DNA of 20,033 bases from Escherichia coli (GTDB lineage: Bacteria; Pseudomonadota; Gammaproteobacteria; Enterobacterales; Enterobacteriaceae), in NCBI RefSeq assembly GCF_003334315.1, contig NZ_QOWR01000069.1. The stretch is one strand, 5' to 3'. A program made the translations under genes and the position numbers. This document shows, piece by piece, positions 9,030-20,033 of the stretch (position 1 is its first letter; each line of letters begins with the position of its first letter). The notes under the pieces were generated by a model. That model searched no databases, was not told where the DNA came from, and worked only from the letters and a program-made list of their open reading frames with translations.

Positions 9030-9176
9030 GATTCGCCTGAACATGCCCTTTTTTCGTAAGTAAGCAACATAAGCTGTCACGTTTTGTGATGGCTATTAGA
9101 AATTCCTATGCAACAACTGAAAAAAAATTACAAAAAGTGCTTTCTGAACTGAACAAAAAAGAGTAAAGTTAGTCGC

Positions 9177-9285
9177 GTAGGGTACAGAGGTAAGATGTTC
9201 TATCTTTCAGACCTTTTACTTCACGTAATCGGATTTGGCTGAATATTTTAGCCGCCCCAGTCAGTAATGACTGGGGCGTTTTTTA
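9177..9285 (+). ncRNA. spf: Spot 42 small regulatory RNA
   Basis: Sequence gtagggtacagaggtaagatgttctatctttcagacc... ending in the terminator hairpin ccccagtcagtaatgactgggg plus T-run, recognised as Spot 42; -10-like taaagt at 9164-9169. Confidence 0.9.
9195..9242 (+). CDS. spfP: 15-aa small protein encoded within Spot 42 (SpfP-like), MFYLSDLLLHVIGFG
   Basis: ATG at 9195 preceded by AGAGG; 15 sense codons then TGA, translated by hand. A dual-function Spot 42 peptide has been reported. Confidence 0.5.
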   Translation: MFYLSDLLLHVIGFG

Positions 9286-10313: not shown

Positions 10314-10556
10314 ATAGAGCGAGGACGCTAACAGGAACAATGACTCAGGATGAGGGTCAGGAGCGCCAGGAGGCGAAGACAGAGGATTGTCAGGAAGACA
10401 AACGTCCGGAGACGTAATTAAACGGAAATGGAATCAACACGGATTGTTCTGGCTAATGGAAAAACAGGGTGTGTTGGCGGCCTGCAAGGATTGTAAGACC
10501 CGTTAAGGGTTATGAGTCAGGAAAAAAGGCGACAGATTACTCTGTCGCCTTTTTTC
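10314..10556 (+). ncRNA. csrC: CsrC, CsrA-sequestering sRNA
   Basis: About 243 nt with 14 GGA triplets, mostly as AGGA/CAGGA, far above chance; -10-like taaagt at 10301-10306; ends in terminator aaaaaaggcgacag...ctgtcgcctttttt; sits between engB and yihI. 5' end approximate. Confidence 0.85.
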
Positions 10557-10624
10557 TTTGCTTGCTTTCTGTTAGATTCCGCCGCAAATCTATACTGAAT
10601 AAAACGGCTAAAAGACGAACCATT

Positions 10625-15808: not shown

Positions 15809-17218
15809 TTAGACGCTGTAGTACAGCTCAAACTCTACCGGATGCGGAGTCATACGCACGCGGTCATCTTCTTCGCGACGCAGTGCGATGTACGCATCAA
15901 TTGCTTCGTCAGTGAACACGCCACCGGCTTTCAGGAACTCGCGGTCCAGATCCAGTTCGTTCAGTGCTTCTTCCAGAGAGCCTGCAACCTGTGGGATCTC
16001 TTTCGCTTCTTCTGGCGGCAGGTCATACAGGTTTTTGTCCATGGCTTCGCCCGGATGGATCTTGTTCTTGATACCATCAAGACCGGCCATCAGCAGGGCA
16101 GCAAAGCACAGGTACGGGTTAGCTGCCGGATCCGGGAAACGTACTTCGATACGACGTGCTTTCGGAGAAGAAACCACCGGAATACGGATAGACGCAGAAC
16201 GGTTACGCGCAGAGTAAGCCAGCATTACCGGTGCTTCATAGCCCGGGACCAGACGCTTATAAGAGTTGGTGGTCGGGTTTGCCAGGGCGTTAATCGCTTT
16301 AGCGTGTTTGATTACGCCGCCAATGTAGTACAGCGCCTGCTCAGACAGACCTGCGTATTTGTCGCCTGCGAACAGGTTAACGCCGTTTTTAGACAGAGAC
16401 ATGTGGCAGTGCATACCGGAGCCGTTATCACCGAACATCGGTTTTGGCATAAAGGTCGCGGTTTTACCGAAGCGGTGCGCTACGTTGTGCACAACATATT
16501 TGTAGATCTGAATTTCGTCAGCTTTTTTGGTCATGGTATTGAAGCGGGTAGCCACTTCGTTCTGACCAGCAGTCGCTACTTCGTGGTGATGGGCTTCAAC
16601 CACCAGGCCCATCTGTTCCATCACCAGACACATTTCAGAACGAATATCCTGAGCAGAGTCTACCGGCGGAACCGGGAAGTAACCGCCTTTCACTGCCGGA
16701 CGGTGACCTTTGTTACCACCTTCATATTGGGTGGAGGAGTTCCATGCGCCTTCGATATCGTCGATAGCAACGTGAGAACCGGAGATAGATGATCCGAAAC
16801 GGATGTCATCGAACAGGAAGAATTCAGGTTCTGGCCCGAACAGTACGGTGTCGGCAATGCCAGTGGAACGCAGGTAATCTTCGGCGCGCTTCGCAATGGA
16901 GCGCGGGTCACGGTCATAGCCTTGCAGGGTGCCAGGTTCAAGGATGTCGCAACGGATAATCAGGGTGGAGTCGGCGAAGAACGGGTCAATCACTGCGGTG
17001 GATGCGTCTGGCATCAGCACCATGTCGGACTCGTTAATGCCTTTCCAGCCGCCAATCGAGGAGCCGTCAAACATTTTGCCTTCTTCGAAGAATTCAGCAT
17101 TCACCTGATGAGCAGGGATAGTGACGTGCTGTTCTTTACCTTTAGTATCGGTGAAGCGCAAATCAACAAACTTCACTTCGTGCTCGTTCAGCATCGTCAG
17201 TACGTGTTCAGCGGACAT
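15809..17218 (-). CDS. glnA: Glutamine synthetase (type I)
   Basis: 469 aa; adenylylation-site Tyr in NLYDLPPEE; characteristic GS catalytic regions. Confidence 0.98.
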
Positions 17219-17301
17219 ACTTTAACTCTCCTGGATTGGTCATGGTCGTCGTGGTAACGAAATCTGCAATTATTTTGGCCGTGTCGCCGTAAAAAAGATA
17301 A

Positions 17302-17317
17302 AGCGAAATCTGTGCCA
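17302..17317 (-). promoter_or_regulatory. Sigma54 promoter glnAp2 (-24/-12 elements)
   Basis: Minus strand reads TTGGCACagattTCGCT, matching the TGGCAC-N5-TTGCA sigma54 consensus; about 85 bp upstream of the glnA ATG. Confidence 0.75.
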
Positions 17318-17350
17318 ACTTTTAAATTGCCCCTAAAAGGCGTTATCATG

Positions 17351-17439
17351 CGCACCATCGTGCAAAAGGGCTGCACCACGATGTGAATGTTGCACCAATA
17401 TAGTGCTTCAATGGAAACATTAAGCACCATGTTGGTGCA
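17351..17439 (-). promoter_or_regulatory. Cluster of NtrC enhancer binding sites upstream of glnAp2
   Basis: Repeated TGCACC/GGTGCA half-sites: tgcaccaatatagtgct (17391-17407), agcaccatgttggtgca (17423-17439), weaker copies at 17351-17388. Confidence 0.65.
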
Positions 17440-17590
17440 ATGACCTTTGGATAACCCTTTTTATGCTCCGTGAAAGCGATCACAAAGGGACTCTGCAATA
17501 CTTGTTTGCGGAGGATGTTTGTGATCCTGTTTTGTAGTGCGATTAATCCGTGTACAATAACGCGCTATTTCTAATGCCTGAGGCAAAGTT

Positions 17591-19414
17591 GTGATCGAAA
17601 AATTGCGTAATATCGCCATCATCGCGCACGTAGACCATGGTAAAACCACCCTGGTAGACAAGCTGCTCCAACAATCCGGTACGTTCGACTCTCGTGCCGA
17701 AACCCAAGAGCGCGTGATGGACTCCAACGATTTGGAGAAAGAGCGTGGGATTACCATCCTCGCGAAAAACACCGCTATCAAATGGAATGATTACCGTATC
17801 AACATCGTTGATACCCCGGGGCACGCCGACTTCGGTGGTGAAGTTGAACGTGTAATGTCCATGGTAGACTCAGTGCTGCTGGTGGTTGACGCATTTGACG
17901 GCCCGATGCCGCAAACGCGCTTCGTAACCAAAAAAGCGTTTGCTTACGGCCTGAAGCCGATTGTTGTTATCAACAAAGTTGACCGCCCTGGCGCGCGTCC
18001 TGATTGGGTTGTGGATCAGGTATTCGATCTGTTCGTTAACCTCGACGCGACCGACGAGCAGCTGGACTTCCCGATCGTTTACGCTTCTGCGCTGAACGGT
18101 ATCGCGGGTCTGGACCACGAAGATATGGCGGAAGACATGACCCCGCTGTATCAGGCGATTGTTGATCACGTTCCTGCGCCGGACGTTGACCTTGACGGTC
18201 CGTTCCAGATGCAGATTTCTCAGCTCGATTACAACAGCTATGTTGGCGTTATCGGCATTGGCCGCATCAAGCGCGGTAAAGTGAAGCCGAACCAACAGGT
18301 CACTATCATCGATAGCGAAGGCAAAACCCGCAACGCGAAAGTCGGTAAAGTGCTGGGCCACCTCGGTCTGGAACGTATCGAAACCGATCTGGCGGAAGCT
18401 GGCGATATCGTGGCGATCACGGGCCTTGGCGAACTGAACATTTCTGACACCGTTTGCGACACGCAAAACGTTGAAGCGCTGCCGGCACTCTCCGTTGATG
18501 AGCCGACCGTTTCTATGTTCTTCTGCGTTAACACCTCGCCGTTCTGCGGTAAAGAAGGTAAGTTCGTAACGTCTCGTCAGATCCTGGATCGTCTGAACAA
18601 AGAACTGGTACACAACGTTGCGCTGCGCGTAGAAGAAACCGAAGACGCCGATGCGTTCCGCGTTTCTGGTCGTGGCGAACTGCACCTGTCTGTTCTGATC
18701 GAAAACATGCGTCGTGAAGGTTTCGAACTGGCGGTATCCCGTCCGAAAGTTATCTTCCGTGAAATCGACGGTCGTAAACAAGAGCCGTATGAAAACGTGA
18801 CGCTGGACGTTGAAGAACAGCATCAGGGTTCTGTAATGCAGGCGCTGGGCGAACGTAAAGGCGACCTGAAAAACATGAATCCAGACGGTAAAGGCCGCGT
18901 ACGTCTCGACTACGTGATCCCAAGCCGTGGTCTGATTGGCTTCCGTTCTGAGTTCATGACCATGACTTCCGGTACTGGTCTGCTGTACTCCACCTTCAGC
19001 CACTACGACGACGTACGTCCGGGTGAAGTGGGTCAGCGTCAGAACGGCGTACTGATCTCTAACGGTCAGGGTAAAGCGGTCGCGTTCGCGCTGTTCGGTC
19101 TGCAGGATCGCGGTAAGCTGTTCCTCGGTCACGGTGCAGAAGTTTACGAAGGTCAGATTATCGGTATTCATAGCCGCTCTAACGACCTGACTGTAAACTG
19201 CCTGACCGGTAAGAAACTGACCAACATGCGTGCTTCCGGTACTGACGAAGCCGTTGTTCTGGTTCCGCCTATCCGCATGACTCTGGAACAAGCTCTGGAG
19301 TTCATCGATGATGACGAACTGGTAGAAGTGACCCCGACCTCTATCCGTATTCGTAAACGTCACCTGACGGAAAACGATCGTCGTCGCGCCAACCGCGCAC
19401 CGAAAGACGATTAA
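17591..19414 (+). CDS. typA: Ribosome-associated translational GTPase BipA/TypA
   Basis: 607 aa, GTG start with GAGG SD; G-domain motifs [18 protein letters not shown]; EF-G-like domain architecture. Confidence 0.97.
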
Positions 19415-19431
19415 TTTCGTTTTTTAGTCAT

Positions 19432-19464
19432 AAAAAACCTGCCAGCGATGGCAGGTTTTTTTTT
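19432..19464 (+). terminator. Rho-independent terminator of typA
   Basis: A-run, stem cctgcca / tggcagg with 4-nt loop, then nine T. Confidence 0.85.
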
Positions 19465-19630
19465 GCCTGTCGTGAGCACTCAGCAATGCGAGTATCTCCC
19501 TTATAAGTCTGTGGTTACGTCAATAGAGAGCTTTGTCACAATTATCTGCAAAGTCATACGCCGTTAATTGCTTTCTTTTTTGGCGTAAGCGTAAGATGCC
19601 TCATCTGGTTTAAACCAAAAGGATTAAACA

Positions 19631-19652: not shown

Positions 19653-20033
19653 GGTGATGATGCCAACTTACTGATTTAGTGTATGATGGTGTTTTTGAGG
19701 TGCTCCAGTGGCTTCTGTTTCTATCAGCTGTCCCTCCTGTTCAGCTACTGACGGGGTGGTGCGTAACGGCAAAAGCACCGCCGGACATCAGCGCTATCTC
19801 TGCTCTCACTGCCGTAAAACATGGCAACTGCAGTTCACTTACACCGCTTCTCAACCCGGTACGCACCAGAAAATCATTGATATGGCCATGAATGGCGTTG
19901 GATGCCGGGCAACCGCCCGCATTATGGGCGTTGGCCTCAACACGATTTTCCGCCATTTAAAAAACTCAGGCCGCAGTCGGTAACCTCGCGCATACAGCCG
20001 GGCAGTGACGTCATCGTCTGCGCGGAAATGGAC
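19653..20033 (+). mobile_element. IS1 insertion sequence, left end and first 381 bp (truncated by window end)
   Basis: Left inverted repeat ggtgatgatgccaacttactgat; insA lies at element positions 56-331 exactly as in IS1; A6C frameshift motif ttaaaaaac at 19957-19965. Confidence 0.92.
19708..19983 (+). CDS. insA: IS1 InsA (transposition inhibitor / N-terminal part of InsAB' transposase)
   Basis: 91 aa, GTG start; zinc-finger-like CPSC...CSHC motif and HTH region ([21 protein letters not shown]...). Confidence 0.92.

Follow-up and report, generated by a model that had tools for sequence, protein, structure and literature searches.

The inverted repeat between glnA and typA (bipA) of Escherichia coli is probably a by-product of two independent functional DNA elements, which both contain the heptamer TGTGATC, in opposite orientations. 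The arms are inverted copies of each other because both carry this CRP half-site heptamer, and since arm 2 persists in Erwiniaceae without arm 1, each arm appears to be conserved for its own reason. The repeat is mostly an ordinary, largely explained feature that holds little new, and the findings leave current understanding standing. The sequences, their conservation and spacing, and the transcript ends used below come either from the comparisons made here or from published data.

Promoters of the glnA-typA spacer

The window, i.e., the whole stretch of DNA that was analysed (20,033 nucleotides), is E. coli chromosome and is in this region identical to MG1655 and BL21. Among four E. coli alleles, MG1655 and three more divergent strains, variation is confined to positions up to 17431.

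The preliminary description reported a glnAp2 -24/-12 element and at least two strong NtrC dyads in the 372-nt spacer, and both were found. The sigma54 element TTGGCACAGATTTCGCT lies at 17318-17302 on the - strand; the glnAp2 start can be placed at 17291, 73 nt ahead of the glnA ATG at 17218. The NtrC dyads, at 17391-17407 and 17423-17439, jointly form an inverted repeat with 19-nt arms. Their centres, 17399 and 17431, are at -108 and -140 from 17291, in agreement with the published NtrC sites at -108 and -140 of glnAp2 (PMC1865078). The second glnA promoter, glnAp1, starts at 17405 on the - strand (class I start RVS 4056244 in U00096.2, flagged as already known), while its published position, 115 bp upstream of glnAp2, corresponds to 17406 (PMC1865078). 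The glnAp2 promoter, the NtrC enhancer and the glnAp1 CRP site are already known, textbook material.

Transcription starts were taken from the dRNA-seq supplement of PMC4681348, which uses U00096.2 coordinates. A class I start is one that is TAP-enriched and located at the leading edge of transcription. For the conversion from U00096.2 to the window we assumed an offset of 1977 bp, which was checked internally only: glnAp1 falls within 1 nt of its expected position and the bipA start falls 7 nt past its -10.

The bipA/typA start is at 17565 on the + strand (class I start FWD 4056404), followed by a 26-nt leader (17565-17590) with the Shine-Dalgarno sequence GAGG and by the GTG start codon at 17591, which is supported by both the open reading frame and the annotation. 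The -10 hexamer TACAAT (17553-17558), 7 nt upstream of the published start, and the GC-rich discriminator aaCGCGC behind it are invariant in 45 loci.

The two arms of the repeat

Arm 1, GATCACAAA, occupies 17478-17486 and arm 2, TTTGTGATC, 17518-17526. The repeat is thus present as first described, with a gap of 31 nt where about 30 bp had been given. By itself it is only mildly unusual: when the 372-nt spacer was shuffled 5000 times with its dinucleotides preserved, 7.7% of the shuffles contained a perfect inverted repeat of 9 bp whose gap is at most 60 nt. The repeat exceeds chance because both arms are conserved: their sequence and spacing are invariant in Enterobacterales other than Erwiniaceae. 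The heptamer, read as TGTGATC or GATCACA, occurs three times in the window, every time inside 17478-17596 (120 bp).

A repeat search lengthens the arms to 21 nt (17478-17498 and 17506-17526), which are 76% complementary around a loop of 7 nt. The same search gives a third copy, TTGTGATCG, on the + strand at 17589-17597, spanning the typA GTG start and complementary at 9/9 positions to CGATCACAA (17477-17485). GTG ATC is kept at the typA start in most Enterobacterales. However, these are the codons that one would expect for Met-Ile, given the preferred Ile codon, and so they are not evidence of selection, and Budvicia and Gilliamella use ATT; the idea that the third TTGTGATC at the start codon is a sign of selection was dropped.

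Arm 1 is the right half-site, with its flank, of the CRP site cgtgaaagcgatcaca (17469-17484, centre 17476.5). This site, cGTGA-aagcga-TCACA, matches TGTGA-N6-TCACA at 9/10 core positions, for which about 0.01 occurrences are expected by chance in 372 nt by our own estimate. The overlap of arm 1 with a CRP-like site, noticed earlier, is therefore real, although the true span starts one base to the left of the 17470-17485 first assigned. In 31 fetched loci from several Enterobacterales genera the half-sites are invariant, with maximal information content, while the N6 spacer is free (AAGCGA, ATGTGA, AAGGGA, ATAGGA and others). Judged from the sequence pattern, 17469-17484 would behave as a near-consensus CRP site.

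Canonical class I CRP positions are about -61.5, -71.5, -82.5 and -92.5. The centre of the site is at -71.5 from the mapped glnAp1 start at 17405, or at -70.5 from 17406, an activating class I position. This bears out the proposal that the site could serve glnAp1, for which a classical upstream CRP site, essential for CRP activation, has been published (PMC1865078). A recent preprint states that the Crp sites of the glnA region have not been experimentally determined, which points to gaps in the curation of this element. In the Crp ChIP-exo supplement, typA appears only in the transcription-unit table with a cluster label, which is not interpretable as Crp binding.

The transcription of bipA has been published as cAMP-CRP dependent. 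From the CRP-site centre to the bipA -10 the distance is exactly 76.5 bp in 31/31 fetched loci, and from the same centre to the NtrC sites and the sigma54 element it drifts by 1-3 bp only. As the glnA-side distances vary so little, the notion of a CRP site fixed only to typA and floating relative to glnA is wrong. Near-consensus CRP sites are also found upstream of typA where glnA is not adjacent, in Providencia and in one Haemophilus species, the latter with a 10/10 CRP site behind a co-directional parE. Altogether, 35/79 loci carry a near-consensus CRP site upstream of typA, against 0.17 expected from coding-sequence controls. The exact spacing to bipA across Enterobacterales, tighter than to the glnA elements, provides the published CRP dependence with a basis in the sequence, and the comparison suggests that bipA may be the oldest client of the shared site. 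Measured from the mapped bipA start, the CRP centre is at -88.5, which is not a canonical class I position.

Arm 2 falls at -47 to -39 of the same start. Wherever the fetched Enterobacterales loci retain the bipA -10, the TGTGATC core of arm 2 almost always stands at a fixed 33 nt from it. This includes the Erwiniaceae, where nearly all loci retain arm 2 though arm 1 is lost. Further downstream, arm 2 merges into a nearly invariant block of bipA promoter and leader that reaches the GTG, and hence it belongs to bipA and not to glnAp1, whose start is about 113-121 bp away. Of the earlier suggestion that arm 2 could act on either promoter, only the bipA half stands. The view of the two arms as one operator or paired element also fails, as Erwiniaceae keep arm 2 without arm 1, and arm 1 is conserved jointly with a CRP half outside the repeat, cGTGA, across a varying N6. 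In summary, the observation is confirmed and its earlier interpretation is partly supported. The second invariant TGTGATC element at -47 to -39 of bipA is a modest addition.

With the bases that follow, most of arm 2 forms a CRP-like 16-mer, TGTGA-tcctgt-TTTGT (17520-17535), centred at 17527.5, or -37.5 of bipA. In E. coli this has 6/10 core positions, with a perfect left half and 1/5 in the right half TTTGT, and fails a two-half match to TGTGA-N6-TCACA; in Erwiniaceae it reads TGTGA-N6-TCAGT, with 8/10 core positions, in 10/11 loci. Its centre is 4 bp off the class II position at about -41.5, and lies 25.5 bp, not 29.5 bp, from where the -10 begins. Conservation in the right half follows TnnGT instead of TCACA and extends over most of the N6 "spacer", a pattern unlike that of a CRP site. 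Arm 2 was also considered as a -35 hexamer (TTGTGA), and rejected by eye at 28 bp from TACAAT; the alternative -10 for it, ATTAAT, lacks the -11A and is poorly conserved, again by eye. A by-eye comparison of the arm 2 block with sigma32, PhoP, FNR, DnaA, IHF, ArgR, TyrR and GalR consensus sequences gave nothing convincing. Between the arms, the otherwise variable spacer contains two invariant islands, TTGTT (17502-17506, at -63 to -59 of bipA) and GA (17514-17515).

The ES222 transcript

A consensus scan finds a sigma70-like promoter, TTTAAA-17-TATCAT, at 17321-17349 on the + strand, reading towards typA from the glnAp2 control region and conserved in Enterobacteriaceae. A class I dRNA-seq start (FWD 4056196 in U00096.2; PMC4681348 supplement) is located at 17357, 8 nt past its -10. 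Term-seq 3' ends are found at 4058217 (17401) and 4058340 (17524), the latter inside arm 2. The end at 17524 was found in two conditions, with a Rho score of 0.68 and an intrinsic terminator score of 6.43 (threshold 3.0), and the published tables list it outside Rho termination regions. Together these delimit a short + strand transcript, 17357-17524, that runs over the NtrC and CRP sites and has its 3' end in arm 2.

The same region contains ES222 (Rfam RF02755), whose model matches 17402-17509 on the + strand with 135.3 bits against a gathering score of 62, covering model positions 1-108/108. ES222 has a discrete published start (17357) and ends (17401 and 17524). Its reads are low, about 1600 against 232,092 at the neighbouring GlnZ 3' end. 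Among 20 loci scanned, the model passes the gathering score only in E. albertii and Citrobacter, and a literature search on the name "ES222" found nothing relevant. As the conservation of the family coincides with the NtrC and CRP DNA sites, it need not reflect an RNA function. What we find is that a catalogued, uncharacterised RNA runs through the glnA enhancer and the CRP site, and that the hairpin at its end is made of two CRP-type half-sites.

A terminator scan identifies a terminator-like inner hairpin, CTCTGCAA-tacttgt-TTGCGGAG, at 17491-17513 on the + strand, followed by GATGTTTGTGA. The inner stem has 8 bp, four of them GC pairs, and a 7-nt loop; it folds at -11.2 kcal/mol alone and at -21.1 kcal/mol with the arms, and the RNA ending at 17524 has z = -5.3. 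The 3' end lies 11 nt after the inner stem. The tail GAUGUUUGUGA contains only 5 U in 11 nt, in an interrupted tract, and the end at 17524 coincides with the foot of the full hairpin, so that processing, and not termination, could have produced it. The - strand of the repeat also folds (-17.5 kcal/mol) and is followed by a U-rich stretch, but the Term-seq tables contain no - strand 3' end at these coordinates.

The potential for the inner hairpin is conserved only in the loci of Escherichia and close genera (L001-L010); elsewhere the folding z-scores of the inner segment are about zero. Two Enterobacteriaceae subclades have differing inner palindromes. In pair counts over 28 species the outer helix is 95.6% paired, though five of its nine pairs show no variation and 9 species leave the ninth open; for the inner helix, no more than 51.8% of cells are paired. 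An invariant outer helix is uninformative for covariation, and by these counts an order-wide structure has no support from covariation. A hairpin conserved throughout the order was rejected on the counts and on the folding of each species.

We suggest that one CRP dimer at the arm-1 site would be placed to activate glnAp1 from the class I position (-70.5/-71.5), and that bipA, too, probably owes its published cAMP-CRP dependence to this site, at -88.5, CRP occupancy at bipA being what we infer. Arm 2 would form the upstream edge of a bipA core promoter with a poor -35, the TACAAT -10 and a GC-rich discriminator. There it would most likely make a contact close to the promoter, perhaps as a weak CRP half-site whose filling is aided by RNA polymerase. 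The spacer between the arms has gained a further palindrome in Escherichia and the genera closest to it, and the whole 49-nt segment is transcribed from the + strand promoter in the glnAp2 region (start 17357). The inner stem and the U-rich tail would then end the transcript at 17524, presumably by termination rather than processing, with the arms closing the 3'-terminal hairpin of the ES222 RNA just upstream of the bipA -35.

It can also be speculated, though this is extremely unlikely, that the ES222 transcript is a regulatory device, an RNA switch that makes BipA synthesis respond to the nitrogen and carbon status and perhaps to temperature. In such a switch, arm 1 (CGAUCACAA) would have two alternative partners, arm 2 in the terminator hairpin and the identical 8-mer over the bipA GUG (UUGUGAUCG, 17589-17597), the switch acting in read-through leaders or in trans. 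The context for this idea is that ES222 starts in the glnAp2 control region and ends at -41 of the bipA promoter.

Alternative explanations and known systems

Two CRP elements acting jointly are a possible, if doubtful, alternative to two independent ones. Here bipA would have a tandem-CRP promoter, of the class III or CytR type, with a strong distal and a weak proximal site, and its spacing would be frozen by two dimers that activate together. The distal and proximal elements are indeed 51 bp apart, centre to centre, in each of the 31 loci with both, which agrees with the 50-53 bp or so expected for a second site on the same helical face. A similar distance separates -41.5 from -92.5, and the two sites of deoP2 at -40.5 and -93.5. 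Arm 2 is a perfect consensus half-site, bipA is CRP-dependent in the published work, and the two sites show a complementary pattern, as the Erwiniaceae without the distal site mostly have the better proximal one (8/10 positions in 10/11 loci). RNA polymerase can also bring CRP to very degenerate sites, e.g., at glnHp1 (PMC1865078). However, the centres at -37.5 and -88.5 each miss the canonical positions by 4 bp, or about 137 degrees. In E. coli the proximal site has just 6/10 core positions, its right half, T..GT, has G where CRP prefers C, and its N6 is mostly conserved, unlike that of the distal site. If instead another dimeric regulator has its operator between the arms or across them, this regulator could be a CytR-like repressor on TGCAA-N7-TTGCG, flanked by a CRP on either side, or some other factor on TTGTT, TTGTGATC or TGTTTAGT. 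The TTGTT and GA islands in a free spacer of fixed length, the layout reminiscent of CRP-CytR-CRP promoters, and the TGCAA and TTGCG of the inner palindrome, which we take to resemble CytR half-sites, would fit. But that palindrome is limited to one clade, the CytR octamer match is poor (4-5/8 by eye), the by-eye comparison with PhoP, FNR, DnaA, IHF, ArgR and TyrR was unconvincing, and bipA is not known to us from the literature as a member of the CytR regulon. Such an operator is highly improbable.

The repeat could instead have been selected as an RNA or cruciform stem: as the base of the ES222 terminator or of a protective 3' hairpin, or as a bidirectional terminator that insulates the control regions of glnA and bipA. 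The 3' end inside arm 2 with its intrinsic terminator score of 6.43, the stability of the 49-51 nt hairpin (-21 to -25 kcal/mol; for the 51-nt RNA closed by the arms, z is about -5), and the folding of the - strand before a U-rich stretch speak for it, as do the different inner palindromes of the two subclades and a ninth pair that changes from A-U to U-A in two Photorhabdus species. Nevertheless this is unlikely. The outer helix, for all its pairing, is largely unvarying and open at its ninth pair in 9/28 species, the inner helix pairs in about half of the cells and has z near zero outside L001-L010, and Erwiniaceae keep arm 2 without a partner. Likewise, of the 20 loci scanned only those of E. 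albertii and Citrobacter score high enough for ES222, and the - strand 3' end is missing from the Term-seq tables. Very unlikely, too, is a mere coincidence, by which two conserved but unrelated motifs are each other's reverse complement and the RNA end is noise of pervasive transcription. The 7.7% of shuffles with such a repeat, the low abundance of the + strand RNA and the lack of covariation are consistent with coincidence; the clustering of all three heptamers of 20 kb within 120 bp, a spacing that is invariant across the order, a class I start at 17357 and a 3' end at 17524 in two conditions are not. Two independent DNA elements that share TGTGATC thus remain our preferred explanation.

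Compared with known systems, the hairpin is like intrinsic terminators flanked by complementary A-tracts and U-tracts, and like 5'UTR or orphan 3' ends mapped by Term-seq (Adams et al., bioRxiv 10.1101/2020.07.18.207399), in its GC-containing stem, its mapped Rho-independent end and, to some extent, its U-rich tail. Unlike typical ones, it has an interrupted U-tract and an end at 17524 flush with the base of a longer hairpin, and it sits in promoter DNA (the CRP site and the bipA -41 region) and not at a gene end. The ES222 family is matched at full length, but the Rfam boundaries (17402-17509) cut through the hairpin, while the published ends suggest an RNA from 17357 or 17402 to 17524.

Among CRP-controlled promoters, deoP2 (-40.5/-93.5) and cdd also have two CRP-type motifs about five helical turns apart, here 51 bp, with a proximal motif that overlaps the -35 and a spacer fixed in length and variable in sequence. 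However, the proximal centre is here at -37.5, not at -40.5 or -41.5, its right half is not CRP-like, and a conserved CytR operator is absent. As in araC-araBAD and malE-malK, one CRP site lies between divergent starts, glnAp1 (17405) and bipA (17565), both reported to be CRP-dependent. Unlike in those pairs, the site lies at -88.5 from bipA, away from the canonical positions for activation, and the two promoters serve different ends, nitrogen assimilation on one side and ribosome assembly and growth in the cold on the other. The closest likeness is to the class I CRP promoters lac (-61.5) and malT (-70.5), i.e., a near-consensus site at -70.5/-71.5 from a weak sigma70 promoter. From the published glnAp1 CRP site nothing material differs, and 17469-17484 is that known element.

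The glnA-typA spacer and its inverted repeat

The repeat lies between glnA (15809-17218, - strand, with glnL and glnG downstream) and typA, now bipA, which has its GTG start at 17591 on the + strand. The 501 bases around it have a match in 5426/5426 complete E. coli genomes and are 100% identical to those of BL21(DE3) and MG1655. Among four E. coli alleles, MG1655 and three more divergent strains (to 97.4% identity), all differences lie at or below 17431. MG1655 U00096.3 coordinates equal window coordinates plus 4,040,816, and U00096.2 positions were converted using a difference between the two versions that we take to be 1977 bp. This offset is supported because the glnAp1 start converts to 17405, compared with 17406 expected from publication, and because the start FWD 4056404 converts to 17565, 7 nt past TACAAT. 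The flanking sequences printed in the Term-seq tables also agree with the conversion.

The inverted repeat in the preliminary description, gatcacaaa (17478-17486) and tttgtgatc (17518-17526), was found by sequence check and repeat search with a gap of 31 nt, and it grows to an imperfect palindrome with 21-nt arms (17478-17498 and 17506-17526). The CRP-like 16-mer overlapping arm 1 is also present, but at 17469-17484, one base to the left of where it was first placed. The repeat alone is weak evidence, as 7.7% of dinucleotide-preserving shuffles of the spacer contain a perfect inverted repeat of 9 bp whose halves are at most 60 nt apart. Within the 20-kb window there are only three copies of the heptamer TGTGATC/GATCACA, all of them in 17478-17596. 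A third copy of the arm motif, TTGTGATCG at 17589-17597, runs across the typA GTG start and could be a coincidence of coding (GTG ATC, Met-Ile); it is complementary at 9/9 positions to CGATCACAA (17477-17485), within the transcript of the small RNA ES222.

Elsewhere in the window, Spot 42, CsrC and STnc370 have Rfam gathering-level matches at 9167-9285, 10314-10567 and 19399-19467, the last spanning the typA stop codon and terminator region. An IS1 insA-type ORF (19708-19983, +; NCBIfam IS1 family transposase, E = 1.8e-25) follows typA by about 300 nt; in MG1655 bipA is followed by yihL, and the strain of the window therefore carries IS1 at that place. A class II start (RVS 4054664, U00096.2; PMC4681348) maps to 15825 (-), just inside the glnA 3' end and about 20 nt upstream of the annotated GlnZ sRNA region.

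CRP sites and the glnA and bipA promoters

The glnAp2 sigma54 element, TTGGCACAGATTTCGCT, is found at 17318-17302 on the - strand as described, which places the glnAp2 start at 17291, and the two strong NtrC dyads are centred at 17399 and 17431, i.e., at -108 and -140, exactly as published (PMC1865078). These dyads (17390-17440) also constitute an inverted repeat with 19-nt arms, a long hairpin in + strand RNA. Romero et al. 2014 (PMC4681348, supplement; U00096.2) report three starts of class I, i.e., TAP-enriched and at a leading edge of transcription, within the spacer. One of them, flagged as already known, is glnAp1 (RVS 4056244, at 17405), published as 115 bp upstream of glnAp2, i.e., at 17406, with a classical CRP site upstream that is essential for its activation by CRP (PMC1865078). 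The suggestion that the CRP site at arm 1, the distal site, could serve glnAp1 agrees with this, since it lies at -70.5/-71.5 from the mapped start, a standard class I position. This is like malT, where the class I CRP position is at -70.5. According to a 2023 preprint, the Crp sites of the glnA region were not determined experimentally and EcoCyc lists only one, at -133 to -120; counted from the glnA ATG, these positions are those of the glnAp2 site published at -51.5.

From the mapped bipA start (17565, class I; PMC4681348), the distal CRP site is at -88.5 and arm 2 at -47 to -39. Low temperature is reported to induce bipA transcription in dependence on cAMP-CRP, and the promoter is reported to be preceded by a consensus CRP site, conserved in Salmonella as well. 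Near-consensus predicted CRP sites precede typA also where glnA is not the neighbour, e.g., in Providencia, so that CRP control of typA looks old, judging from predicted sites. Such a site precedes typA in 35/79 loci, against 0.17 expected from coding-sequence controls. A Haemophilus species has a 10/10 site upstream of typA (locus L061, 1393-1408), with a co-directional parE upstream, and near-consensus or perfect sites are also seen in Providencia, Morganella and Photobacterium (loci L038, 1355-1370; L045; L075); in the genomes of these four genera the promoter block of the enterobacteria is not kept.

Conservation of the two arms

We fetched 80 typA loci, one genome per species; glnA is divergent from and adjacent to typA in most gamma-proteobacteria. 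The distal site is present as cGTGA-N6-TCACA, with invariant halves and a variable spacer, in 31 loci, from genera including Escherichia, Citrobacter, Enterobacter, Kluyvera, Cedecea, Serratia, Yersinia, Rahnella, Hafnia, Edwardsiella, Pectobacterium, Brenneria, Budvicia and Photorhabdus. In 31/31 loci its centre lies exactly 76.5 bp from the typA -10 (TACAAT); with respect to the NtrC dyads its position shifts by 1-3 bp, and with respect to the sigma54 element, in most loci, by no more than 3 bp. In nearly all fetched Enterobacterales loci keeping the -10, TGTGATC of arm 2 precedes it by a constant 33 nt, and this heptamer starts an almost invariant block of -10, GC-rich discriminator and the entire 26-nt leader, up to the GTG. 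In Erwinia, Pantoea, Tatumella and Rosenbergiella the distal site is absent, arm 2 is kept in nearly every case, and the proximal 16-mer (17520-17535), whose left half lies in arm 2, is usually a better match, TGTGA-N6-TCAGT. The arms are therefore not borne out as one paired element: arm 2 is retained where the distal site is absent and each arm has its own conserved context, i.e., they are conserved for separate reasons, and they are reverse-complementary because each holds the CRP half-site heptamer.

The bipA core promoter and leader (17519-17590) hardly vary from Escherichia to Yersinia, Photorhabdus and Erwinia, far above the conservation usual in promoters, and the GC-rich discriminator (CGCGC) after TACAAT suggests control by the stringent response or by growth rate, or else a constraint at the RNA level. 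The fixed-length but variable spacer between the CRP site and bipA contains two invariant islands, TTGTT (17502-17506; bipA -63 to -59) and GA (17514-17515; -51/-50).

The main rival, that the distal and proximal sites both serve bipA as a tandem CRP pair, is attractive given the 51-bp spacing of the two elements and the complementary pattern in Erwiniaceae, where the better proximal sites accompany the loss of the distal one. However, it fails on two defining points, as the centre of the proximal 16-mer is at -37.5, which is 4 bp off the class II position, and its right half is kept as T..GT, not TCACA.

A hairpin as the reason for the conservation of the arms was rejected on folding, pair counts and a scan with the ES222 model. 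The inner palindrome exists only in loci L001-L010 (Escherichia and close genera), with a different, weaker one in a Cedecea-like clade, and in the fetched loci outside these groups the folding of the inner segment does not exceed that of shuffled sequence. Counted over 28 species, pairing amounts to 95.6% in the outer helix, where 5/9 pairs are invariant and the ninth is unpaired in 9 species, and to 51.8% of cells in the inner helix. Of 20 loci scanned with the ES222 model, only those of E. albertii and Citrobacter reach its threshold.

The ES222 transcript and what was known

A + strand class I start (FWD 4056196, U00096.2) converts to 17357, 8 nt past TTTAAA-17-TATCAT from the promoter scan. 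This sigma70-like promoter (17321-17357, +) is back-to-back with glnAp2 and overlaps its published -51.5 CRP site and weak NtrC sites; alleles of O157:H7 and other E. coli vary at 17352, 17353 and 17355, between the -10 and the start. Term-seq (Adams et al., bioRxiv 10.1101/2020.07.18.207399) reports + strand 3' ends at 4058217 and 4058340, i.e., 17401 and 17524. The latter was found in two conditions and is classed as an orphan end, 67 nt before bipA; its Rho score is 0.68, and its intrinsic terminator score, 6.43, exceeds the threshold of 3.0. ES222 of Rfam matches 17402-17509 on the + strand with 135 bits. From the mapped start, the 3' ends and this match, it follows that transcription covers the repeat. 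The inner stem (17491-17513) and its tail are the terminator-like site found by the terminator scan, and in an RNA ending at 17524 the two arms are predicted to close a 3'-terminal hairpin (-21.1 kcal/mol, z = -5.3). The 3' end at 17401 adjoins the position where the Rfam match starts, 17402, a placement suggestive of cleavage within the NtrC-dyad stem.

The sigma54 promoter, NtrC enhancer and glnAp1 CRP site are textbook material, and the CRP dependence of bipA, ES222 in Rfam and the 17524 end in a public table are already known. What appears not to have been combined before is the frozen distance from the CRP site to the bipA promoter, the separately conserved TGTGATC element at bipA, and an ES222 3' hairpin made from two CRP-type half-sites. 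The glnA-typA repeat is thus confirmed and the interpretation first given to it is partly supported; the repeat combines elements of kinds already known.
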